In this document: piece after piece, positions 11,269 to 64,000 of the stretch
How positions within the stretch are numbered: position 1 is the stretch's first letter
How the letters are laid out: each line of letters begins with the position of its first letter
Program-made: the position numbers and the translations under genes
Source: Balanoglossus misakiensis
Taxonomy: Eukaryota > Animalia > Hemichordata
DNA: 64,000 nt
Assembly (NCBI GenBank): GCA_040954595.2
Contig: CM082595.2
Span: 6,412,137-6,476,136, forward strand
Direction of reading: 5' to 3'
The notes under the pieces: generated by a model
What the model was told of the DNA's origin: nothing
The model's database searches: none
The model's input: the letters and a program-made list of their open reading frames with translations, nothing else

Positions 11269-11760
11269 TCCGACTAAACGAAATCAAAATGTCAAGCCAG
11301 TTATACTTAACGGAAAATTCCCATTCGAAATTCATTAGTCTGTGTATATTCTCGACAAATCAAACCAACATCAAGAAATTCTCGTATAATCAGAAATATG
11401 TACACCATGTAAAATACTATATTCTGTTACCATTATGCATATATTGAAATCATAACGCCAACAGAAACACCTCATCAGGCAACAGTGCGCCTGCGCCGAC
11501 CTTAAGTCTGGCTGTGAGGGTGCATTGGTTCGAACAGGTGCAAGAGTGGTAGTTAACAATTAACTTTTATGCTAAGACACTATTTTCACGAATCTATCAT
11601 CTTTGTTATCGAGATCAATCAATTCTGTGAAGAATTGCTTTTGTTCTGCAAACTTTAATCTATCCAAGAAAGCCTCTGTGGTAAGAAAATAAAATTTGGG
11701 GGTTGTAGTGAAAGGCCATCACGAATATTTCGATACGAAGTGCAATACTTGGGATATGTG

Positions 11761-13206
11761 TTATTCGTCTGCGTTTTCTTCGTCTGGTAACGATCTCTTT
11801 TCTTCTTCTCTCTTACCGAGAACGTCGAATCCTCCGACACCGAAATCTGGCTTGGCTTTCTTTCCTAAGACATCAAACCCTCCAACACCGAAATCGGGCT
11901 TAGCTTTCTTTCCGAGAACGTCGAATCCTCCGACACCAAAATCGGGCTTAGCTTTCTTGCCGAGAACGTCGAAGCCACCAACACCGAAATCTGGTTTAGC
12001 TTTCTTGCCGAGAACGTCGAAGCCACCAACACCGAAATCTGGTTTAGCTTTCTTTCCAAGGACATCAAACCCTCCAACGCCGAAATCGGGCTTAGCTTTC
12101 TTGCCGAGAACATCGAAGCCACCAACACCAAAATCGGGCTTAGCTTTCTTGCCAAGAACGTCAAATCCTCCTACACCGAAATCTGGTTTAGCTTTCTTGC
12201 CGAGAACGTCGAAGCCACCAACACCGAAATCGGGCTTAGCTTTCTTGCCGAGAACGTCGAATCCTCCGACACCGAAATCGGGCTTAGCTTTCTTGCCGAG
12301 AACGTCGAATCCTCCGACACCGAAATCGGGCTTAGCTTTCTTGCCGAGAACGTCAAATCCTCCTACACCGAAATCTGGTTTAGCTTTCTTGCCGAGAACG
12401 TCGAATCCTCCGACACCGAAATCTGGTTTAGCTTTCTTGCCGAGAACGTCAAATCCTCCAACACCGAAATCTGGTTTAGCTTTCTTGCCGAGAACGTCGA
12501 ATCCTCCGACACCGAAATCGGGCTTAGCTTTCTTGCCGAGAACGTCAAATCCTCCTACACCGAAATCTGGTTTAGCTTTCTTGCCGAGAACGTCGAAGCC
12601 ACCAACACCGAAATCTGGTTTAGCTTTCTTTCCAAGGACATCAAACCCTCCAACACCGAAATCTGGTTTAGCTTTCTTGCCGAGAACGTCGAATCCTCCG
12701 ACACCGAAATCGGGCTTAGCTTTCTTGCCGAGAACATCAAATCCTCCGACACCGAAATCTGGCTTGGCCTTCTTTCCGAGAACGTCAAATCCTCCGACAC
12801 CGAAATCAGGCTTAGCTTTCTTTCCAAGGACATCAAACCCTCCAACACCGAAATCTGGTTTAGCTTTCTTGCCGAGAACGTCAAACCCTCCTACACCAAA
12901 ATCGGGCTTAGCTTTCTTGCCGAGAACGTCAAATCCTCCGACACCGAAATCTGGCTTGGCCTTCTTTCCGAGAACGTCAAACCCTCCAACGCCGAAATCT
13001 GGCTTGGCTTTCTTTTCTCCTTCAAATCTCCTCCTCTTTCCTCTACTGGCGCTTATTCTTTTCCCAGTTCCCCTGCAGTAAAACCCAATGGTTTCAAGTT
13101 GAAAGTCAAAGCATGGCTGTGATCGTCGTTTGCTTATTTGATGTGGTTCTGTTTCCGATCTCAGATTGTTCACGTGATTTTTCAATGAATCTGTTAGACT
13201 TCTTTT
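11761..13206 (-). CDS. Neuropeptide precursor, main coding exon: 25x AKPDFGVGGFDVL-amide, one Cys-bridged peptide and spacers (481 aa; full precursor ~504 aa)
   Basis: Part of ORF 11761..13212. Preceded on the minus strand by a polypyrimidine tract and acceptor (ctttttctttttggcttttgcAG|AAA AGA), so the track's TTG 'start' is intronic. Peptides are bounded by KK/KR/KRR sites with Gly amide donors, the C-terminal tail is acidic (EEEKRSLPDEENADE) and the stop is TAA at 11763-11761. Confidence 0.93.
   Translation of the reverse strand, partial: KRSLTDSLKNHVNNLRSETEPHQISKRRSQPCFDFQLETIGFYCRGTGKRISASRGKRRRFEGEKKAKPDFGVGGFDVLGKKAKPDFGVGGFDVLGKKAKPDFGVGGFDVLGKKAKPDFGVGGFDVLGKKAKPDFGVGGFDVLGKKAKPDFGVGGFDVLGKKAKPDFGVGGFDVLGKKAKPDFGVGGFDVLGKKAKPDFGVGGFDVLGKKAKPDFGVGGFDVLGKKAKPDFGVGGFDVLGKKAKPDFGVGGFDVLGKKAKPDFGVGGFDVLGKKAKPDFGVGGFDVLGKKAKPDFGVGGFDVLGKKAKPDFGVGGFDVLGKKAKPDFGVGGFDVLGKKAKPDFGVGGFDVLGKKAKPDFGVGGFDVLGKKAKPDFGVGGFDVLGKKAKPDFGVGGFDVLGKKAKPDFGVGGFDVLGKKAKPDFGVGGFDVLGKKAKPDFGVGGFDVLGKKAKPDFGVGGFDVLGKREEEKRSLPDEENADE
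11809..13008 (-). repeat. Coding 48-bp tandem repeat, 25 units, with a 4-unit (192-bp) higher-order pattern
   Basis: 400 aa = 25 x 16 aa. Units differ at synonymous positions only, except the last, which ends KR. Diagnostic variants recur at 192-bp spacing: 'ctacacc' at 12171/12363/12555 and 'ggcttggcc' at 12761/12953. Confidence 0.95.
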
Positions 13207-13245
13207 CTGCAAAAGCCAAAAAGAAAAAGTTCAGATTAATATAAG

Positions 13246-13291
13246 ATAATGTAATATAATGTAATGTAATGTAATGTAATATAATATAATG
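13246..13291. repeat. (GTAAT/ATAAT)n pentanucleotide microsatellite just upstream of the splice acceptor
   Basis: Direct reading. Confidence 0.85.
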
Positions 13292-13346
13292 TTGCCTTGA
13301 GTAAAATATGATAAAAGTTTAAGACTTTGATTTTTTATGGTACATA

Positions 13347-13555
13347 CTGTAAAACACTTTATTTTCGCGAGTTTAAATTTTCGCGATATCCAGAGAGACC
13401 ACTGTTTCGCGAGTATTAATTTTTGCGCTCTCTTATTTCATTCACTGCATCGTTGTATTTTTAAAAAAGTGTACGCGACTTTTTATTTTCACACTATTTT
13501 GGCTCTCGCGTATTTCGTGAAAATTTATTGCTCGCGAAAATAAAGTGTTTTACAG
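13347..13555. mobile_element. 209-bp MITE with perfect 25-bp TIRs and TA flanks (Tc1/mariner-like non-autonomous element)
   Basis: TA|CTGTAAAACACTTTATTTTCGCGAG ... CTCGCGAAAATAAAGTGTTTTACAG|TA, with internal repeated TTCGCG motifs. Confidence 0.88.
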
Positions 13556-14868
13556 TACTACCTTAAATCAAAATATTTTCCAGTTGGTTTTGGAAGTGGG
13601 CGAAAAGGCATGCCCCATGCTTTCGTAAGAACATTTATATTTATGGCCTGGTGTGTAAACGAGCAGCCACTTGCCATTCTGGTACCAGGTTGATAAATGG
13701 CGGGCAAATGACCAATTGAGACCTCATTTGGACTACCGTTTTTTCGAGTGTTTTGTCTCATCAAGCTGTGCAAACAACTCTGCACTTTGCTTTCGCGAAC
13801 AGTTGCAAGTGGCCACAGTTATTGAATTCTTTGTTTCACGTCCTCTCAAAAAAAGTTTCACAGTTTTTGCGAGCCAACGAGCTAAACCATGTGGCCACAA
13901 TGATTGAATGTACTGCGTTTGCCAACAAACCGTACACCCGTTGCTAACAAACAGTTCAGCATGTATTAATTTGCACCTTCTGATATAAAAGGAGTTAACA
14001 CTAGTAAGCATAATGCCCGCATATGGTTAAAAAGTCATGTCAAAGTCTTAGCTGACCTATGTTGGTGGTCTTTTTATGTATGCCACCCAAATAAAATTCT
14101 GTGGTTCGTTAATTCCTCTTTAGTTGTGATGAAATTTGCATGCGTGATCATATTCACAGATGATTCTATCCATCACTTTATTTGGGGTGTTCACCAAGAA
14201 AACATAAAGGTGTCATGTATGCTTCTTGGCCGTCTACATTAATCGAACAAAACAAACTGAACATCGCGATTGAGTCGTGACTATAAAACTCGAAGGCAGT
14301 GCTTACTCATTCGCGATCCATTACTGCAAAGATCGCACCGGAGGTCGTTGTGCAGAGGCTCTTAAAAGAAACACTATACAATCACAAATATAGGCATCCA
14401 CTCTACTGAATTGCTAATGTTCAGGTTTCTAGTCTGAAAACAAAAATAGATATCATCGCGCAACATATTTTGGCGAAAAGGACTTTGTAATGGCTTGTGA
14501 TGACATTAATGTGCTTTCCGATGCAATTTTATTCACATCTGCGTCTTGATACCAATATTACTGTTTTGGATAAGACGCTGATCCTGAACTAACAATTTAC
14601 GTCTTTCCGATAAAGTTTGTTTCGGTCTGTCGCACTTTGTAAAAGCACGTGCAGTACTAGAATGCAGTGAAGTGTCCGACAGGAATTGTCAGTCAAGACA
14701 TGTAGGTTGTTTATTGGCTTATATCCGGCGTTCAAATAATGTGATCGTTGATACTAACTTACTCATGCGAGCGTCGCGACATAACCTACATTTGGATAAA
14801 AAATACTGATTGTCAGTGCTATGTATAGGCACGTTTATCCATATCCATTGCTTATTATGGTCGGCAAA

Positions 14869-14899
<31 letters not shown>

Positions 14900-14905
14900 T
14901 TGTTG
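14869..14905. repeat. (GTT)n microsatellite
   Basis: Direct reading. Confidence 0.9.
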
Positions 14906-17900
14906 AGAGCCTCTTGGTATAATATACAGGGTCAGACAAGCATTGTCTTCGTTTGTCATCAATTGAATTGAATTGAAATGAATACTCCACCACGACACTG
15001 ATATTTCCTATTGCAGTGTGAGTCTCATGAAAGGACACTTCTAATCTGAAATAGAATATGGCGCTCACGAATCAATTTCCGGATTTCAAGTTGGCTTAAT
15101 CATTGACAATGCGCCTCTACTGTCTCTGTGACTTAATCTGTGCTGCCGTGTATGTCCTGTACACATCACGAGCAGCAAAACAACGAGCTGTATACGGTCA
15201 TGCCATTAAGCACTGGAAGGGCGCGTTGACAGTCTTGGAAATGTTTTCAAAGGAAAGCAGGTTTCAGCTGACGGGCATATCATTTTGATCAAGCGCGTCT
15301 AACATTGCTCATTTACAACGATAAATTGTCACACCTGATGACCTGCTATTGATTTGTAAAGCAGACATGTCATCGAGGCTGAGCTGGAGACGTCTCAGTA
15401 ACGCGAGTTGTCTGGGACTGGAATTGTGACCTGTATCTATCGCACCCGTGTGGTTTGGTGAAGGGAATCTTTTCACGACAACTTGACGTGTGTTGAAGTT
15501 TCCATGAGTGGAGTTGATTAGCAGATGTGGCAGTCAAGTGGCCTCTTTTCGGTTAAGCCATCGTGTGCCTGTTTCTGTCTGCCTTGCGCACAAGTCAACC
15601 AAAACTGACATATGTTCTGCACGAGACCCTGCAAGATTTCGTGTGGCTAGGCAATTTACACATGTGATCAATTTCATGACAGAGGACAATGTAACACAGG
15701 AAAAACAATACCTGGCCCATTGTGTTCAACGGCTAAAAAGTTACAATTTTATTGTTAAACTCTCCTCCTATATTCTACTTTCATACAAAGCTTGATTATA
15801 TTTACTAGATACCAACCCGCTGCTATGACAACTGACCAAATCTCGCGAGATCTCGCAATGAGCGAAAATGGTCTATTTATAGTACCTGAGATTCTCCGTC
15901 GGTGATGAAAATATGAACTTGAGGGTACACAGCATGTGGTCTGCACTAATCTATGGGTACTGCGCAGTGCATTTTTCAGAACCGGGAAAACAAATATACC
16001 GACACTTAGTCCGCTACTGTGCAAACTCTAACTACATGCAGAGTGCTGTTGGGTTGGTTACCTTGGTTTCTAAATCATTTTTCGCGGCCATGGTCGTTCA
16101 CAACTAGTTTTTATTGGAAATAGAACCAGATGGTCGTAAATTAGAAATAATTGTTCGGGACTTTGTACTTAAATTTGAATCGACAATACAATATCACAAT
16201 TTTTCAATCACATAAATAGTCTGCAAAGCCCAAAACCAGACAAATGACGAACTTTCTCCAGGTGTTGATCGCGACAACGATATGCATCATGGCGACATCT
16301 TGTGTTGAACGTTGGGGGAGGGATAGAATAGAGACAATGAACTGTCGTCAGCCTTCTTTTCCCCCTATTTTCTACTTTAATCGATTAATTTGTGAATGAC
16401 GGATGCAAGTCAGTCAGCCACTTTCCCACTGCAGATGTCTTTGCACGACAAAATTAAACCTATTGAAATTTTTTACAAAACAACTAAAAAGTCAAAACTG
16501 ACGGAAAATCAATTTCGGCTATTCGTTTGAGTCGCTTGCGGGAAGAGCTTCTAAATTAACACGGACTCCTAAAGCCGGCAGTCTTTTATGGAACATGTTT
16601 TCGCGAATCAATTTGAAAGAAACGACTACGCGAGAAGAACCTTGTCTTTTACAGAATTATTTTGTAATAATCCTTGGTTTGAGGGAAAAATGAAAATATA
16701 AGACAGCCTTTTCAGTTTCGCGTGTACATCTAAAAAATACCTACATGGATGGACGAAATCTGATTTGAAGTGCTTTTATGGGTATTAGGATAAAACTAAT
16801 ATACAAAATTGTCGCTCGGTAAACGAACCGAGTAATTTCCGTTGGGTTTGACCGATAAGCAGCCATGCTGAAATGGAATTATCTTTCAAGGATAGACGCC
16901 ATTATGAAACAGGGAATTCTGGGAATTCCCAAACATTTCTATCTTGTATGTTTTTGGGAAGCAACCAGGGCATTGATCTTTTATTTATACTATACTGTTA
17001 ATCATGGCAACAGACATTATGGTGTGTTGTTTTCCCCATAAAATAGTCTGGGCTCTGTGTTTATTGCTTTAAAGACTTTGCTAATGAGAACACTCCTCAC
17101 ATTCATATTTAAAATGGCCGCCAAACTAGTTGTTAATTCAATAGGAAAACTCATTTGTTGATAACGAATAAAAAGAGGTGAACATTTTATTGTATTAGCC
17201 TTTAATGGTTTAGAACAAGCTACAATGTTATAGCCAATAGGCGGAAGAATTACTAATTAATAATTCTCAGTTGCATTTCCTGTATCAAAGGTAGTAAATT
17301 GTTCAACCATAGTGTTCATGTTCGTGGTATTCGGATTGGAGGTGACGCGACAGGAAATATTTAAAAATTAATCTGAATGTGATTCTGCTCTGACGCCGAG
17401 AAGGTCAGCCAAGACTTTGTTTGACAAATCCTGGCAAATTCTCATGCGTTTTAGTTTTGTAACATTATACATCCTTTAAAAGGCCAATACTGTGTGGTCT
17501 TGTTTGAACACATGCCCAAGTTCCTATTGACATTGCCAGACGTGTAAAAGCGTTCAATATTTGACTGCGAACTTTTGCAATTGTGGTTTGGTTTGTTTTC
17601 GTGACCTGTGCGAATTGTAAGATCACGGCTGAACGCAAGCCGGATAATTGAAATTTCCGGTCTGCTTGCTCCAACCATACACATTCTCTGTTCTGACTAC
17701 ACGTACTTACAATATATAACCAGTGGCGCTATTTCTTGCCACTTTACACTTATTTGCCTGGGAGTCTGTTTGTTCAGGTTTTCCCACCTATCAACATAAT
17801 GTACACTTCCAATTTCACGTAATTGACTAGACAACATAGCTGACTTTACAAAGTACATGTATTTGCAGCACTGACTATAATCTTTGTCACAGCACTTAGA

Positions 17901-17958
17901 CATTACGCACAGATTCAGTGGCATAGAATTACACATTACGATGTCCAAGTAATTTGCA

Positions 17959-17979
17959 TAGATAGATAGATAGACAGAA

Positions 17980-18045
<66 letters not shown>

Positions 18046-18061
18046 TATTAGACAGATAGAT
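17959..18061. repeat. (GATA)n microsatellite
   Basis: Direct reading. Confidence 0.96.
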
Positions 18062-21000
18062 TATCTTTTCATGGAATGTTAACCTTTAGCTCCTGTACAC
18101 TGGTGTACGTCACTTTATTCTGTTACTTCTACATCTGTGTTAAAATGTAATAATGGTGATGCTTCTCTCTGTTTCGGAAGAATAGTCTAATGGCTCGATT
18201 GTGATCAGATGGCAAGCAGATACAATCGCTACCGACGTTGCACACATTGCCTCATCTGGCGAGTCAGGCAGCGTTGACGAGGAAAAAACACATTCCCAGA
18301 GTGGACTAAATGGAAGAGTTTAATCATAGTAGATAATGCTTGGATGATTGCCCGACTTTCTAAACATAGGTGCATTACTGAACATAAATCCCCTGATTGC
18401 AGGTCACATGAACATACATATGTTCAAGGGTCAGTGATCTCTGGAAAAATGAAGTCAGCCGACAGTAAATGTATGAAGTAACAGAATAGAAGCATGTCGA
18501 AATTTTTCATTCAAATATCTACATTTGTAACGTTCACTTTTGTTACATTTTGCGTGATTTGATAGCTAATCATAACATATTTCACCAATATAGTCCATGC
18601 ATGTTGCTTTTCCAACTATTCTTACTCACCCTGTGGGGGTTTGAGCAGACAAGGATAAAATTTAGCCGCATGCTTCAACCAAACCAAGTGAAGTTGTTAC
18701 ACCACACCCATCTGCATGTGCGTGTACATGCGGTCAACCCCACTAAAGTGTGAAAATAATTAATGTTTTTTACGGCAATGAATATTCTCTGTGTACAGTA
18801 TAATTACAAACCAACGTCCTAGTGTAGCATATTGTGTGTTACCATCAAATTTCCATGTAAATTAAAATCACAGAATCGCGGATCTTCAAGCCTTGTGTTC
18901 GACAGTATCATTTATGTTTAGTTTACAAATCTTGCGGTTTAATTTGACCGTCTGAGTTACTATAAGATGTGGTTATTATTCCCACCCTGATATAATATAC
19001 ATTTGTAGCGCCCATGTACCCTATAGCACCACTTAGATAAGCAGGAAATAATGCAAAAAATCATGAATAATATTAGGCCTATGCCTGAAATATTAATCAG
19101 ATGTATCATAGCGTAACCTATCAATTCCCAGAAAAAGCATAAACCTGAAATTAGTATGAAAATACATTGATTAAAAAAATAGTTTAGTTTAATGATTCAT
19201 ATAGAATGCGTCTATTATGTTCATGTTAACACTTTCAAAAAATGAGTATAACAAATTGAATATTCTCTTCAATTTTAGAATTTCATGTGACCAAACATGT
19301 TAATTTAGCACGTGAATTCGTAACATGGTCACAGAATATTTGTCTACTATTTATCCGAATTTTATAAAACAGACAAATTAATCATGTGAGGCTATGATCA
19401 TTGGTGAGCAATGTTTAAAGAGGCGGTAGCTGTAACTCTTTGTTTTCCTTTTTGCTTGGGAACAAATACAATGCTTCATTCTGCCTTGTAAACATATCAA
19501 TATTCTAAATATTTTACTTGGTTTAATTTGCATATAGCCAATAGGGTTACTGGTGTGATGACATGTGACTTGGAGTCTAGGAATTCATATGTATTCATGT
19601 TTACATGATGGGTTAAAGACAGATTTGGTGTTTAAGCATGTTTTAGGGAACAGATAAAATACATCAAAAAGAGGAATTTTGTTCCGTAGGCCGGCAAGGG
19701 TGCAAATTAAAGCGTCCTTCCAAAACCCTATCAACTCTACTGAAACCATCATAGCAATGCAGTGTCTTTGTTGCCATAGCAGTGAGCGTGCAACAGAAGC
19801 TCTACCAGTAACCATCCTCATTAAGGGTATTTTGCGAAGCTCTAAATTTTGTTTCAAAAGCATGTTTATTCATTATTAAGATGGGGAGATGTCACATCTG
19901 TCCATGACCTTTGACCAACAAAGAGCTACTCAGGACTTCCCTACCTCTACAACCAAACCGATGAAAATCCATAAATTTTGATCATGGCAAGTTTAAAACC
20001 AGGGAATGATCTTTCATCAATGAAAATGTGCCATTTATCCTATAATATCATAAGTGATGACCTTCGCATTTGGGTGTTATATTCTTTTGTATTTTATTTT
20101 GGTTTTATTTCATTTTTTAATTCATAATTATTCTTTGTAATAGTCTTACTAATTAGCGTCGTAATACTGACCTGAAATATAATTTAGCGCTGCTGTCCGC
20201 GTGTTCGTGTTCAGTGATATGGTCTGATCTGTTCTGGACTGGACGAGACACTTAATGGTTTTAATCGCTTTGAAGCAATCAGTGATTTACACGGACCACA
20301 TTCTGCGCTTTTCTTTAAATATTAATGAAAGCTGTTCGTGTATTAATTAATTTTTAATGACGTAACTCCACGTAATATCTTGTGTTTTTGACAAATGCAT
20401 ATTTTATTGAATGAATTGAAACTCCTGGGAATGGCGGCAATATCAAATGAAACAAATCCTAACTACAAGACAATAAATAGATCGTGAAAAGTTCGTTTTG
20501 CAATTGAAACTCGCATTGTATTCATAAGAAAAAACGATGATATATTTTGATATTTGATGGTTTTGATTTCCATTTAATATTTTACCCAGTATGCAATAAA
20601 GATGTCCAATTTGACAATCACCTCGAAGGTAGCCAATTGTGTACACTATGGAAAAATTTAAAGCAATGGTTGCCTGGTGACGGTGTAATGGTTGCAAATT
20701 AGTTCCAATATCGGTCAAGAACACCGGTGCCAGACAAAAATGCAGAGGCATAACTTCCCGCCAAAACCGGATAGAAGGCTAAACGATAGCCCGCATTTGC
20801 CCTTCTCTGTGATTCGAAGTGCCAGTGATGGCTAATTGTCACACAAAATAGAAAATCACACATTTTCAGGTCGTCGGCACGCCTATAATCCAAGTACAGT
20901 ACATTTTATCCTCTAGGTTCGTTCAGACAAGCCCACAACTTAACCTTTCGAAATTAAGCTGCCTCAAAAGACAAGCGGATCAGCCGTGTGTTTGAAGGGT

Positions 21001-22768
21001 AATTCGCTGACAAATTGACCACTACACTTAAGTCATTACACGCTCTCCTATATTACTCCTCAAGTGTCTTTTAGCTTTGAAGTGAATAACATGTGTAAAT
21101 CACGCATGGAGTATCTGATGTGTTCTACTCAACTTTGTTTGCCGTCGTGTGCCTACATCTGGCTCGCTGCCGATGTATTAAAAATACATGAATCTTATTT
21201 CTCGGGATGTAGAAAGCCCTTAAATTTCTAAGCGTCTTGTCAATTTCATCCGGAGTTTCACGGGAAAGGGAAATATGCCTTTCTGAATCGCCACTTTCTG
21301 AGAGCTTTATAACTTTCAAAAAGGAAAATTCAATTCAGCATTAGCTGTTAATCTTTAATCTTCGCCAAATACACAAAGAGATACCGTACGTTTCTTAGAG
21401 ATGACTCGGTATACTCTCTTTCGGTTTAATGACGCGAAAAGCCGGATGAACTTCTCCTCGCAAGCCGATAGGATTTCCTATAATGTAATTTTTTTTAAAT
21501 TCATTTTTTTTATTTATTTACTGAAGATCGTTTTGCCGCAAGATATTTTTTCATCCCTGCCACTCAAACTTTTCCTTTCATCACCTTTTTTGATTGAAAA
21601 ATGCTCTGAAACTGGTATTGTGGTGGGATTTTTGAAAGATGCCATTTTTGATGTAAACACCATGACGGCAGGATGTTCCATCTGGCTACTGCGAATCTGA
21701 GTTGTCGTTCTTTCTGTTGGTTCTTTGCTCGGCCGTGCAACCCAGTACCCAAGAATGTAACACATAGGCGGTACCTCCCCTACTGTTTTCCTAGTACAAT
21801 TTTACCGCCAAAACTGTAACAAAATTTCTCGTTGGGTCGATAAATTCACACAGTATGGTACCTATTCGAGATAGGGACATTTATAACCTGAAAATTCATC
21901 ATTGCGGTCCAAAATAAACCACCCAACCATACAGTTTGCGCAAAACGATTTTCTAATAACCAAATTGCTTATTATTAAAAATCATTACAATACGTTATCT
22001 GGGGACAGTGATATTAATGGAAGAAATCTGCTTTATTATCTCCAAAATTGAATAGTAAATTATTCATATTTTGCTTCTCAATTGCCAACATTAAGCAAGA
22101 AAGACTCTTGAGCTAAATAGATTATAATTCAGCCCCCACTGCGCGAGATAACAGTATAGGTAAGAACAACGTGTATTGTTCTAATACAGATATACAAATC
22201 AGTGGGAATAAAGTAGAGGAATGATGGATTTCTGCTTTGATTAGGTGAATTTGGCAAGAAATACTAATGTATAATTTCAAGTTCCAGCTGGATGGTAATA
22301 TCTGGATCTTACCTTTTTATGACAATCATGATCTATGGGCCATGAAATGTGGGCTTTTTCAACTTTTGACTGTACAAAGCCAAAACGTCAAAACTAAGAT
22401 TATGAGAAATATCGCCTAGAAAGGTAGCAGACTGATATCATTCAGAATGTAAAAAATGTTTTTTGACTCTTGATAGCAGAACAAAAAATCAGTTATCGTA
22501 TCGAAACGTTTTGATATCGCCGACGGCTTGATTTATTATACACTTAAAATGCTTTTTACTTCGCAGATGTGCGTTTCTATGACAACATTTCCATTTTAAT
22601 GTACCACCTAGTGAGAACTCGGGCTGGACCTCTGCGGTAATGGGGCTGCCTCGGCCGAAGAGAAAATTCATCCACGGCTGGCCCACGCACTGCGTTCAAG
22701 TGACATCAAATTCACTTACAATGGTAGGTGTATTGCATTGAGAATAGTCGAGATGGCTGAAAACTTAC

Positions 22769-22837
22769 CGCTTTTTCTTCGTCGGCTTTGGTTACGAAGA
22801 TCACACAGGCTAACGATAGGACGAGTAGAATTTTCAT
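22769..22837 (-). CDS. Neuropeptide precursor, coding exon 1 (signal peptide): MKILLVLSLACVIFVTKADEEKA
   Basis: Reverse complement reads gaagATG AAA ATT CTA CTC GTC CTA TCG TTA GCC TGT GTG ATC TTC GTA ACC AAA GCC GAC GAA GAA AAA GCG|GTAAGT. It has A at -3, a basic N-region, a hydrophobic core, a T-K-A cleavage context and a consensus GTAAGT donor (22768-22763) in phase 0, matching the phase-0 acceptor at 13206. The join of the two exons is inferred. Confidence 0.85.
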
Positions 22838-22894
22838 CTTCGCTTCACTGCGGGTGGACGTCGATGCGACGTCGTCTCTGTACTGTAGGGCCCA

Positions 22895-23085
22895 CTAATG
22901 CGTATGGCTGGACAACCACGTCCGGTTGCTATTTAACCCTCCTCCTGCGAAGTGAACAAACAGAGCACTTATGAGTGTCACGCTCACAAGACGAGAAACA
23001 AAGTGGTGGCGCGGTTTTAATTAGAGTGATATTTGAATAGGGAATTTCGCCTGGGCGGCCGCGGTAATTTAACATGCAAATGTCC
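22895..23085 (-). promoter_or_regulatory. Putative core promoter of the neuropeptide gene
   Basis: TATA-like TTAAATAG on the minus strand at 22936-22929, ~95 nt upstream of the ATG (implied TSS ~22895-22905). A GC-rich GGGCGG lies near 23053 and an octamer ATGCAAAT at 23074-23081. Motif-level evidence only. Confidence 0.5.
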
Positions 23086-45700: not shown

Positions 45701-46059
45701 TACTACACAATGCAACAATTTAGAATGTGTGTCGCTAGCGGAAGCTGAAAAATCGATACATCCGTTCTGTAAATGTTTATAGGTCCTGTAAAGCTCAATT
45801 TGTTCGTCCTTTTCGTCACATGTTCCAAACTAATTCACTTTGCGATTAATGTACCAAGTCACAGCATCACATTACATCAAATAAAGTTATCTTGGCGTAC
45901 ATTACTGTTTGAGACAACTCTATGCTTTGTTGTTAGTAAGGTGTCTGTATGCGTTTATGGTGTGGACAACAGGGCTATAGTCAGGAGCATATTTCTTTAG
46001 CCGTGCTCAAACACTACGGTACAAAAACTGTCCATTTTGCCTGTTCCTGTATCTGACAA

Positions 46060-46760
46060 GCGCGAACATCCACCCTGGGCTCGTTACACCCAGCCGCGCT
46101 CAACTTCAATATGCAAATATGTCGCGCTTTCATCAAACCCATCAAACAGGAATCACTCAAACCGCCCAACTTGGCGCGTCCTCAAGACAATCACCTCTTC
46201 TCCCGCCATTTTCCTTGCCACATCAACGCATTCAATCACCCGCGGCCGTTCCATTCGGTTCACTTATTCCCCAGACAGTTAACACATCGCTTTGCCATCT
46301 TACACATCTTACCATCCGTGCCTTCAACTGACATGTCATCTGTTCGTCCATCTTGCCACAACCCACCTGGTCATCTGGTCACCAGCTCTGAAAACCATCG
46401 TTCACCCATACATGCGTCATATTTCCTACTAGTTCAACCCGCCCATGTGTTCATCATCCAATCTCATATCCGTATATTTCTTTCATCTCCATTCCTCAAT
46501 CGAACTTTTGTCAATTGATCCATACACCCACCCACCCTGTCACCCCCTCAAATTCCCTGTCAGATGATTACCCAAGTTACTTAGAAAGTGCAAACTTTTT
46601 TACACCAATCAGCTAATTCGCCCTCTCAATCGGCCCCTTCAACAACCCAACATCTTACCCCAATCCACCTACTACCTCATTCACTGATCGCCTTTCAACC
46701 CACCCACTGTCGTCGATCAATTTAATTGTATCCCTTAAATTCAATCCAATATCAAACTTT
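46060..46760. repeat. C/A/T-rich low-complexity tract (decayed CCAT/CCAC-type repeat)
   Basis: Strong G depletion on the + strand and recurrent ccatc/ccaccc/tcatc words. Confidence 0.6.
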
Positions 46761-49700
46761 AAACAGCCTTCTGTCTGCCATTACCTTAAAACACTGATCA
46801 GTACAACATCTCAACATGGAACTCATCCAATACTTTCTGCTACAACGGCCTGTGAGTCGATTGCGTGAAATATCAAATGCCACCGACAAGGTATAAATCG
46901 CTTCTCGACTAAGTGCCAATAAACAGCAACATCAGACTGTTATGCCTCTTATTGACTGCGAGGCATTCGTCTTATCGGGGGAAAGGGCTTAGCTCGGCAT
47001 TGTGCTCAAGCGGTTAAGTCCTAAACCGCCGCGGGCGTCTGATCAGCGCAAAGAGCGGAGATAAATGCTTCTCGTGTTTCCAGTTTTCAAAATTTATCTA
47101 TAAAAGCGCAGTTTATCAATAAGTGTAAATACAAAGTAACGTTTTCTTATTTTTAGAACTGGTTCAGTTAGTAGATGTAGTATTGTGTCAACCAGTCATG
47201 CAAGACAAAATCGTATTGTAGGCTGTATCTGGTTTTACTACAAACTATGTTCTTTATAAAACTCTTTTTCTTGGAACAGTCTACACTTTTACTTGTGAAT
47301 TTTCCACTTTTGTCCTGGGGTATAGGATTCAAATTTTCGTTCCATCAGTACTTCCTATTCGTGGCACATTGTTGGTATTTCGTGTCCCATTCTTACCGGG
47401 AAGCTGTCACATTTATGTATTCAGTTGTTCCATATACACCATGTGAGCAGGACTCCTCCTGCCTGTGCGAATAGCGAAACGAGGTCTGTCAGTTTCAACT
47501 GAAGGCCCACTTTCTCTTGAACTTAATTGAGAGCGATCGGCTAAGGTTCAACCTGGGAAACGAGGGGCACACGTTTCAAATCATGTAGATGTCAAACGAT
47601 TTCGTGTAACAAAACACGACGAATTCCCAAAAGAAAATTAGTCATTTCAACTCACCCTTCCACAGCATCAGTGCCGTCGGCAATATTATCTTTGCATTGA
47701 AACGCTTTGTTCTCTATGAATATCGCACCGGGCTTCAATGATATTAAACACGTGACTCTCTGTGATTTTTACAGTTTGGCCTTTGATTTTGCTTTGCGTA
47801 TCAGATGTTTCACATCGATGACAAAAGGTTCTCATTCATCCCTGTCTCCCTAGATACATTCTCGATTAGCTATGCATTTCTAGTGAAGAATTTCAGTCTC
47901 GTTTGCAGGGTCTACATTTTTATGACTGCATGAATGTATGATATTGTCAGCCTGGTACTTGTTTCTATTACACAGACATAAAACATGCAATTTTTGATTA
48001 AAAGTATGTCTTAAAATTCTTAAGAGACACATCTGGTTGTTTTCTGAGCAACGCTGGAATGACCTGAATATTCGCCTCCCCCTAATGTTCCTTGCAAATC
48101 CCGTTTACTGTCTACTCAAACTGTTCTCTAGTGTTGCTTCGTTTGTATTTTGTTGGACAGACCCTACTCATCCGACTTTGATTAGAAGTATGGTTTACCC
48201 AAATTCCAGACTTTTTTCTTGATAAACCGAGAACGACCCTTATTTTTCCTGGCTGTAGTACCCAGCAAGACAGCCCCCCCCCCCTTCCGAGGAGACCGTA
48301 TACTTGCATGTAAACACCGTCCAACTGCCCTGCGAAATAACGTAAGTCTTAACAGATTAGCCAAGCCGAGCCGCCTTTGCCAAAGCAGCGTGGCCGTGAC
48401 ACAGGTATTAGGAGACACAAACTCGTCATGGGAATGTATCGGCCTTGTGTCGTTATTTCCCTAATCCACCTCGTTCACACCGGCGAGACCAACGAACATT
48501 TCCTGAGAGGCTAAGCACCAGTTGCTAAGTCTAAAGTATTCATGCACCGGGAGTATCAAAATCAACTTGTACTTTTAAGCTCAACTGTAATCTTACTGAT
48601 TGTAGCTTGGGGGGGGGGGTATTTTTTCAAATTCATCAAATATGTAGATTCGTTGTTTAAGTCATGTCGTATGCTAAAGCACCAGGTGTTCAGCAAGTCT
48701 ACAATGCGCATCTGGGTAAAATACATATTCATTATTGGCCATAACATGTGCACTCCTTTTCATGCAGCAGACGCGAAAGCATACATAAGAACAAATAGCA
48801 TCGGCGTTGGCTGACAGGTTTAGAGACTCTGTACCACTGTGGTAGTGGACACTCCTTTTGAAACTCTCGATTTTGTTCGAGGATGTCACATACAATAAAC
48901 GCCGCGTTGTCCACTTGGGTCTGTTAACAAATCACTGCCACAGCCCAGCCTTCAGAAGAACTCGTCACTCGCGAATGAATCACACAATCTCCCCTTAACA
49001 GCAAATGCTCAGCGAAGCCTTCCGCAGAGAAATGTATAGACTGCCAGACTTAGACAAAACAACACATTATTTCACTTACATGTATAACAGTGTATACACT
49101 GTTCAGTACGATTACGGTAATCTATGTCGATATCATATCAACTTTTTCATATATTTACTCACAAGACATAGGCCATAATTTACTCCGTCTAAGCAAAGAA
49201 ACGCGATCATATACCAAATTGTCGAAACATTTCATTGGCCTATAAGAAGTCAAATTAGCTGCCTCAAAAATGAGTATAACATGCTGTCTCTGTTAGACAT
49301 CGATCATCAAGGAAATGGGTGGACGCTTTTAGGAGAATGTTGTAATGATCTAGATAGATGGAAATCAGATCTACATCCGAACCCTGGTGTGTGTACTTTC
49401 TGCCTCGTACAGTACTGTACTGCCAGGCGAGTGAAGACGATATGTCCCTGTTTGGGTCCGCTCCCCGCCGTCTTATTACCTGCGTTCGTTTGATCTGATT
49501 TGCCGGTGATTTAATCATTTTATCTGCGGTCCTGGTTATTACGTTCTCCGGCGAGACAATAAGAGAAGGCTGTCAGTTTCCGGACTTGACGGAAACATAA
49601 CGGAACCTTTAATTCATCAGTGGCGGCCGACAGCCAAGGAATGATGAACAACCCTCTCTGCCTTTTAATTAGTAACCTTCGCGTTATAGAGGAATCGAGC

Positions 49701-54848: not shown

Positions 54849-55161
54849 TATTATATTATACCAGTATATTGATGGTGTAAATCACGCTATTTGATTGGTC
54901 GAGACACGACACGTGACCATGATATATTAGCCATATACCACAGTCATATATCATAGTTAAAGAAAATGCCTTTTTAAAATGTTTTATGCAAAGTTTCAAT
55001 ATACTGGCATAATATAATAGCAATAAAACACCCCCAGCCATGGTATACCACTCGATTTTGACCAGTTCAACTCCATATACGCACTCGCTATCGCTCGTGC
55101 GTATATGTCGTGAACTGGTCAAAATCTCGTGGTATACCATGGCTGGGGGTGGTTTATTGCT
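54849..55161. mobile_element. Palindromic non-autonomous DNA element with two adjacent stem-loops
   Basis: A 24-bp inverted repeat (54849-54872 / 54996-55019, 1 mismatch) is followed by a near-perfect ~143-bp hairpin at 55019-55161 (AGCAATAAA..CCCCCAGCCATGGTATACCAC..GATTTTGACCAGTTCA..CATATACGCAC / GTGCGTATATG..TGAACTGGTCAAAATC..GTGGTATACCATGGCTGGGGG..TTTATTGCT). Confidence 0.8.
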
Positions 55162-56415: not shown

Positions 56416-56683
56416 TTTCTGTTTATGAACACACCAACTTTTTTCCAACTGTTCAGGGAGACCCTGCCAACCAATACATGTTATATCAAAGTAAACTGAA
56501 AATGTGATAACAAGTAACGACGCGTTGTTTACTATGACATGCAGTGTTATACAAATAACAACCACGTTGTTTGCAATGGTGTACATTATAGCGGCTGCAC
56601 TTTGTGCCTTATTTTACTTGCTAGCAACTGCGTTGTATGGGACCGATACAGGCAGCCATAGATGTGGGGACACCCTCCTTTTG
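56416..56683 (+). repeat. Dispersed repeat copy A (~270 bp), homologous to 60911-61183 in inverted orientation
   Basis: Shared blocks such as GTTCAGGGA.ACCCTGCCAAC.AATACATGTTATATCAAAGTAAACTGAA.ATGTGATAA and GCTAGCAA.TGCGTTGT.TGGGACC.ATAC. The spurious ORFs at 56504 and 60811 are visibly similar for this reason. Confidence 0.85.
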
Positions 56684-60910: not shown

Positions 60911-61183
60911 TTTAAAGAGAAGGTGTCGCCCCGTCTGCGGCTGCGGGTATGGGTCCCACACAACGCAATTGCTAGCCAGTCAAAGTAGGTGCAAAACATA
61001 ACTGCGACAATGTACATAATTGCAATAATGTAGTTTTTACTTTGTATTAAGATGAACGTCATGGTAAACAATGTGTCGTTACTTTTTATCACATCTTCAG
61101 TTTACTTTGATATAACATGTATTAGTTGGCAGGGTGTCCCTGAACTGTGGGAACAATGCTGATGGTGTGTTTGTACACAGAAG
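60911..61183 (-). repeat. Dispersed repeat copy B, beginning at TTTAAAGAGAAGG (possible TTAA-target DNA transposon end)
   Basis: The reverse complement aligns by eye with 56416-56683. Confidence 0.85.
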
Positions 61184-63215: not shown

Positions 63216-64000
63216 GAAAACTGTCACCGCTATCCCTACCCTTGCATGTCAGACAGGAGGAGCGACACATAGGCCAGACAGACCGACTGATCTCCCTCGC
63301 CTTCAATAGTCAAGCCCGCCTCTTACTCGTCGCCGAAGGTATAAAAGCGTTGTTTGAAGAACTTAAACTAAAAAATACAGTGCCAAAAATAAGAATAAGT
63401 ATCGATTTCATAGGCCGTTTCGGCGTGACTGATAGCCGTATTTAAACTTAAACTCCTGCTTCAGCGAATTTATATTGCTGATTTTACTTGTAGACACTTT
63501 TTGGGTAAATACTTCATAAACGACAAAGGCAATTACAGCTGCCGTCGTTACAGTATGCAAAAGTTCACCAAATTGCTTGGAAATGGAATTTTCTATTAGG
63601 AATATCCACTTTTAGAAATTTAAACCATTTGTTAACACTGCTGCTATAAATTTTCCTGTCCCCGATTGGCCATTAAAATACAGCAATTACACCAGTCGGC
63701 GATTATACGGCCGTATAGTTAAGGCTTGCGGTGACTGTGTAGGATCATTAGACCAACGCCTGTAGGTTGAGGTATTTAGTGTCTAACGTCTGAATATAGC
63801 TTTACGCTTTCCCGTGGGGTAAAGGTCTTTCTGATCGTAATCGGGGTTATCATTAGTGCGAGCCATAAAATTTACGTCTCGTTCGCCGCTCTCTGCATGC
63901 GCACGCACGCAGAAAAAAAAACAGACAGCCAAGAAAAAGAACGCGAAACAGGGCATAGTCCTCTATACATACGGCATATCCACAACATATGCACAAAGCG

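Follow-up and report, generated by a model that had tools for sequence, protein, structure and literature searches.

The only two-cysteine peptide of the precursor described here is given a probability of about 0.5 of being a secreted cyclic amide. It would form a disulfide ring within a proposed two-exon invertebrate neuropeptide precursor, with excision at KRR and G-KR followed by amidation, and would likely serve as a signal with its own receptor. The same precursor is predicted to yield 25 identical linear amides, which resemble pedal peptide/orcokinin (PP/OK). As part of the same joint explanation, and at the same even odds, the ring would be an orphan peptide lying outside the MCH, elevenin and somatostatin/AstC families.

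Gene model and coding evidence

In the window, meaning the whole 64-kb stretch of DNA that was analysed, a minus-strand open frame at 13230-11764 comprises 489 codons. A putative signal-peptide exon further upstream would complete it, giving the following features.

22838..22944, minus strand: likely 5' UTR sequence at the start of the first coding exon, placed from sequence context
22769..22837, minus strand: putative first coding exon, the best of three candidates, with an ATG, 23 residues, a hydrophobic signal peptide and a GTAAGT donor in phase 0
13207..22768, minus strand: putative intron of 9562 nt in phase 0, from the in-phase join of exon 1 and exon 2
11761..13206, minus strand: second coding exon by sequence, from a T-rich CAG acceptor to the stop, carrying all predicted peptides
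13132..13200, minus strand: 23-residue spacer between KR and KRR, by translation
13063..13122, minus strand: single C-x11-C peptide with its amidation Gly, by translation; a predicted cyclic 19-mer amide
13039..13056, minus strand: second single-copy predicted amide, ISASR-amide (531.31), directly behind the ring; missed in the earlier reading
13027..13044, minus strand: RGKRRR, containing the only R-X-K/R-R (furin-type) site of the precursor (RGKR, residues 78-81); also missed in the earlier reading
11815..13008, minus strand: 25 tandem copies of AKPDFGVGGFDVL-G with KK between them and a 48-nt period, each a predicted 13-mer amide (1319.69)
11764..11814, minus strand: acidic C-terminal tail with two KR sites, by translation

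The evidence that the frame is coding lies far beyond chance: all 20 derived alleles in the repeats are synonymous, compared with 24% of single changes expected (crude P about 3e-13, a value that ignores mutation bias and the shared history of the repeat copies). The repeat is 14 residues long (AKPDFGVGGFDVLG) and is protein-identical in 25/25 copies, which are nevertheless written in 18 distinct DNA units; 14 of 45 DNA positions vary, 13 of them at third and one at first codon positions. Among the parts of the precursor, selection is demonstrated for the repeats only. Two plus-strand ORFs (11693-13081 and 11869-13122) were rejected as antisense shadows, their repeats changing amino acids where those of the minus frame do not.

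The first exon was sought on the minus strand from 13230 to 64000 as an ATG, a hydrophobic stretch and a phase-0 donor. Three candidates were found, and the exon at 22837-22769 was by far the best (hydropathy 3.16 vs 2.38). Its signal peptide was judged by hydropathy, and the -3/-1 rule puts the predicted cut behind Ala18. The untranslated part follows a pyrimidine-rich CAG acceptor near 22945, which implies a non-coding exon further upstream. We infer that this signal exon is spliced onto the exon beginning at 13206, and the junction puts KR directly behind the acidic pro-piece. Two weak internal exon candidates (22369-22313 and 20645-20586) were found among the single phase-0 exons scanned, and their translations look unrelated. 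A 57-residue minus-strand ORF at 63786-63956, with a signal-like start and G-KR, was rejected as an exon, the donor being absent where expected, and was judged to be chance.

The two-exon model, with no further exon assumed, gives a precursor of 504 aa with Cys only at 11 (in the signal peptide), 55 and 67. Two features expected of a multi-copy neuropeptide precursor are found in it: an N-terminal signal peptide, by hydropathy and on the proposed splicing, and repeated peptides lying between dibasic sites with an amidation Gly (25 copies). Its basic sites are KK (25 times), KR (four times), KRR and KRRR.

The ring segment

Positions 13063-13122 on the minus strand translate to SQPCFDFQLETIGFYCRGTG, residues 52-71 of 504, with KRR before the segment (13123-13131) and KR after it (13057-13062). 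The codons of its two Cys start at 13113 and 13077 and are the only Cys codons of the open frame; 11 residues lie between Cys55 and Cys67. The predicted ring amide has a monoisotopic mass of 2207.98 (2209.99 reduced). The earlier note had placed both Cys of the mature region in one C-x11-C segment bounded by KRR and G-KR, upstream of a 25-copy linear peptide, and translation of the minus frame confirms both points. The cyclic amidated 19-mer that it drew from them holds as a fair sequence-based prediction, to which a signal-peptide exon is now added; its status is that of a predicted product. Release of the Cys-pair peptide in the form of a cyclic amide is probable.

The arrangement of the ring is modestly beyond chance and is suggestive rather than compelling, because the number of Cys is at chance level (two in 58 free residues vs 2.2 expected from intron frames) while their placement is somewhat unusual. 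With basic sites fixed, 27.7% of 200,000 shuffles put both Cys within one dibasic-bounded segment, and 2.4% put them within one that also ended in Gly. Across the six frames of the 64-kb window, a single site matches dibasic-C-x(3-15)-C-G-dibasic. Origin of the ring as a decayed repeat copy was considered and rejected, its protein score being reached by 18,855 of 20,000 shuffles and its DNA score by 997 of 2,000.

Predicted processing and release

Prohormone convertases cleave KR, KK and KRR sites, and the resulting ends are trimmed by carboxypeptidase and amidated at Gly by PAM. On entry of the precursor into the ER and removal of its signal peptide, Cys55 and Cys67 would be the only pair left to be oxidized. 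Downstream of the ring the order is ISASRG, KRRR, FEGE, KK, the 25 repeats and the acidic tail, and RGKR sits between the single-copy block (ring and ISASR-amide) and the repeats. An early furin-type cut there would part the N-terminal block (spacer, ring and ISASR-amide) from the repeat block, and later PC1/PC2, carboxypeptidase and PAM steps would yield one cyclic 19-mer amide, one ISASR-amide and 25 13-mer amides.

The resulting 1:1:25 ratio would be set at synthesis; separate sorting of the two blocks may lead to another ratio at release. R-X-K/R-R is named as the furin motif in a reference title of PMC2119775, a paper that also describes the Aplysia ELH prohormone, in which the first cut falls at a unique tetrabasic site and the halves are sorted to different vesicle classes. 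Like the present precursor, the ELH prohormone is divided into two blocks by a unique multibasic site (PMC2119775). However, it is unrelated in sequence, and split sorting, shown for ELH, is here an extrapolation (PMC2119775). With the single R-X-K/R-R site placed between ring and repeats, peptides made at 1:25 need not be co-released at 1:25. The 1:25 co-release stoichiometry proposed earlier thus stands as a ratio of synthesis, while release may depart from it as in Aplysia ELH.

Comparison with known cyclic peptides

MCH-type peptides lie at the precursor C-terminus; Cys1 is followed by Met/Ile, and the residue two before Cys2 is basic (PMC4772807). In echinoderms their ring has 10 residues, among them D at Cys1+2, W at Cys2-3 and R at Cys2-2, and in eleutherozoans R follows Cys2 (PMC9793003). 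The ring here shares with ambulacrarian MCH-type peptides a single disulfide, D at Cys1+2 and R after Cys2, the latter two being two of the five echinoderm features. It differs in having 11 residues in the ring instead of 10 (8 in vertebrates), in lying near the N-terminus instead of the C-terminus (residues 52-71 of 504), in having F instead of Met/Ile after Cys1, and in having G and F in place of the W-R before Cys2.

Elevenin has 8 residues in its ring, conserved D, F, P, R and G, and no second peptide in its precursor, and its activity depends most on G17 and R16 (PMC10175484). It is described as non-amidated (PMC5627052). The ring resembles elevenin/L11 in the C-R-G behind the ring (reached by 0.7% of shuffles) and in a length of about 20 residues. 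It differs from elevenin/L11 in its ring of 11, in P instead of D before Cys1 and in I and F at -4 and -2 instead of the F-x-P-x-C arrangement (PMC10175484). It also carries a Gly-KR amidation signal and is accompanied by 26 further predicted peptides.

Somatostatin/AstC peptides are single-copy, lie in the C-terminal region, are usually non-amidated and have a central F or WK (PMC5627052), whereas the ring is N-terminal, predicted to be amidated and free of W. Amidation alone does not exclude AstC, because AstCCC is amidated. CCHamide, GGNG and EP peptides are single cyclic amides next to the signal peptide, with a His-amide or GGNG-type end (PMC5627052); here some 33 residues separate the ring from the predicted signal cut, and the peptide has an RGT-amide end. 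Altogether, the likeness of CFDF...CRG to known families, raised in the earlier note, is partly borne out: C-R-G is common to elevenin and D with R to echinoderm MCH, but ring sizes and other features differ. Its proposal of an elevenin-, MCH- or somatostatin/AstC-type receptor appears weak, since the ring lacks published defining features of all three, and these receptor families are unlikely candidates.

The repeats compared with PP/OK

PP/OK peptides have Phe near the N-terminus, a D-X-L core with X = Pro/Thr and an aromatic residue near the C-terminus (PMC9793003). The repeat reads F-G-x3-F-D-V-L, with Phe near its N-terminus and D-X-L with X = Val; its peptide stops at Leu, with no aromatic residue after D-X-L. 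Starfish and holothurian PP/OK share with it the register F-G-x3-hydrophobic-D-x-L (PMC5656890, PMC11868395, PMC6586643), reached by 577 of 500,000 shuffles for a motif selected post hoc. Some phoronid PP1 peptides end in G-F-D-x-F-G, and the repeat ends alike (409 of 500,000 shuffles) (PMC8557429). PP/OK-type precursors (starfish SMP/ArPPLNP1, holothurian PPLN and spiralian PP1) also carry many copies, and amidation occurs in holothurian PPLN as it is predicted for the repeat. The repeat differs from PP/OK in its AKPD extension, Val at X and the lack of an aromatic tail.

Inspection by eye of the PP2 entries in one part of the supplement of PMC8557429 showed no Cys-pair peptide, and no PP/OK precursor was found among the phmmer matches. 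The repeat peptide looks like PP/OK; the likeness is partial and falls short of membership. According to PMC5656890, from 2017, no PP/OK receptor was known.

In the repeat array at 11811-13015, the 48-nt repeat shows a higher-order period of 192 nt (92% vs 88% matches). This period suggests expansion in blocks of four units, and repeat copy number may be variable between alleles.

Precedents and alternative explanations

Cys-bearing segments are found in many precursors with linear copies. In Platynereis the WLD, AYNPY and FMRFamide precursors have a signal peptide, a Cys-bearing N-terminal segment and then many short copies at dibasic sites, and WLD also has KK spacers, like the repeats here (PMC3890597). 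In the displayed entries, none of the three shows sequence likeness to the ring precursor, and the WLD and AYNPY segments have four Cys (PMC3890597). Brachiopod PP3 precursors have a Cys-rich N-terminal region (PMC8557429), and RGWamide/APGWamide precursors have two Cys at the C-terminus. Ophiuroid np18 has four linear copies joined to a Cys-rich region (PMC5627052). Echinoderm kisspeptin precursor 1 likewise has a Cys-pair segment upstream of a linear amide (PMC9793003, PMC5627052). In crinoids a cyclic and a linear amide are predicted from it, and in the starfish precursor KP1.1 the Cys pair was placed outside the mature peptide by mass spectrometry (PMC9793003). Kisspeptin precursor 1 carries two peptides compared with 1+25 here, and its C-terminal LPF-amide is absent here. 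Because precursors that combine a Cys segment with linear copies are already known, there is no need to invoke fusion or a special stoichiometry, and the earlier description of a cyclic peptide 'fused' into the precursor is not borne out. These precedents, including the starfish Cys pair, make a non-signalling Cys loop a real rival: the pair would be a structural loop of the pro-region that aids folding or sorting, or a by-product, and only the 25 linear amides would signal. We consider this possible, at clearly less than even odds. It agrees with how common N-terminal Cys segments are in multi-copy precursors (Platynereis and brachiopod PP3), with the C-terminal Cys of RGWamide/APGWamide precursors, with the exclusion of the KP1.1 pair from the mature peptide and with selection being seen in the repeats alone. 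However, the ring segment is short, aromatic-rich and ligand-like; it is flanked by KRR and KR and, as in few shuffles, closes with an amidation Gly. The Cys pair of Platynereis FMRFamide, 14 apart, is not bounded as an amidated peptide in the sequence displayed (PMC3890597).

Descent from a known cyclic family is improbable. The ring would then be a diverged MCH-type (or elevenin-type) peptide that entered the gene by fusion and acts on the receptor of that family. Eleutherozoan MCH likewise has D at Cys1+2 and R at Cys2+1 (PMC9793003), and C-R-G matches the elevenin residues that matter most, G17 and R16 (PMC10175484). With Cys fixed, the combination of D at +2 with R-G after Cys2 arose in 0.046% of 300,000 shuffles, for a pattern chosen post hoc; because this match is rare, though picked afterwards, the MCH reading is kept at low odds. 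Against MCH are the position, the residue after Cys1, the lack of a basic residue at -2 and W at -3, and a ring that is neither 8 nor 10; against elevenin are the ring size, the residues before Cys1 and two before Cys2, the predicted amidation and the company of other peptides. An extended form of this idea has very little probability in our view: a PP/OK-type gene would have taken up a diverged cyclic peptide of MCH-like type, a single precursor would serve two ancient signalling systems, and the furin-type cut would allow their separate release. If the animal is a hemichordate or cephalochordate, this would in addition be the PP/OK gene that those groups are missing. Processing or structure might differ from the model, and here too the odds are long. 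Readthrough of KR would give a longer cyclic peptide ending in ISASR-amide, for which a second Gly and a stronger multibasic site are available six residues downstream of the ring. A hidden exon could add Cys and alter pairing, the intron being 9.6 kb long and the scan having covered single phase-0 exons. G-KR is, however, a canonical amidation signal, and exons 1 and 2 join in phase with KR directly after the acidic pro-piece. A secreted cyclic amide thus remains our preferred explanation of the Cys pair.

Searches for relatives

None of the searches revealed a relative. A word-based protein homologue search gave 0 matches at E<=10, for a short query and a method weak for distant peptides. 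A phmmer search of 1.84 billion representatives gave three matches (E 1e-4 to 3e-4), all to unrelated repeat proteins. One of them is a beetle acaloleptin from NCBI nr. The library therefore includes NCBI nr animal proteins and would probably have revealed a close, annotated orthologue whose repeats are similar. Sequence searches would miss a distant relative that has only the 19-mer in common. The ESM Atlas gave no usable match to the precursor, and PDB sequences gave 0 matches. Among metagenome contigs, 0 of 255 pattern matches were confirmed; two single matches in microbial-looking contigs (L001 and L002) were judged to be chance.

No published description of the repeat motif was found in full-text literature searches, and no matching precursor appears in the displayed supplement passages of PMC9793003, PMC8557429, PMC6425005 and PMC3890597. 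The accessible parts of PMC11087051 and bioRxiv 10.1101/265579 hold nothing relevant to the precursor. A Saccoglossus VIamide/VLamide (VIG) precursor is named, without sequence, in the displayed text of PMC10508912, and could be related to the one described here.

Surroundings in the window

The precursor gene stands alone, with no other recognizable protein-coding gene found in the 64 kb when 146 of 171 stop-free stretches of at least 72 aa were compared with Pfam (the 150 longest minus four shadow frames of the repeat). The only Pfam match above cut-off, FapA_N on the repeat, was rejected because its score adds up over the repeats: no single stretch passed. Rfam gave 0 matches in the window.

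Window GC is near 39%, and microsatellites are present; together with the 9.6-kb intron, these features would suit a marine-type invertebrate whose genome is large. Just inside the intron, at about 13346-13560, an element of about 210 nt was noted by eye, with inverted ends (TACTGTAAAAC ... GTTTTACAGTA) and repeated TCGCGA motifs; it looks like a MITE. A 251-nt inverted repeat pair (56432-56682 and 60914-61164; 77% complementary, 4.2 kb apart) is likely two copies or the ends of a mobile element. A hairpin-like element at 55019-55161 has 51-nt arms, 94% complementary, and a 41-nt loop. The region at 46001-48000 has a GC skew of -0.25, raised GC and no Pfam match in the frames scanned, and is possibly a decayed mobile element.

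Significance

The precursor is real, orphan and new in sequence, and ordinary in kind, its layout being already known. Its evolutionary value is limited without orthologues. An undescribed neuropeptide precursor is added, and its three predicted products of defined mass lend themselves to receptor screening and peptidomics. Should the repeat be a truncated PP/OK peptide, it would bear on the residues that the PP/OK family needs, and if the ring is active, it would be a new cyclic ligand for an orphan GPCR.
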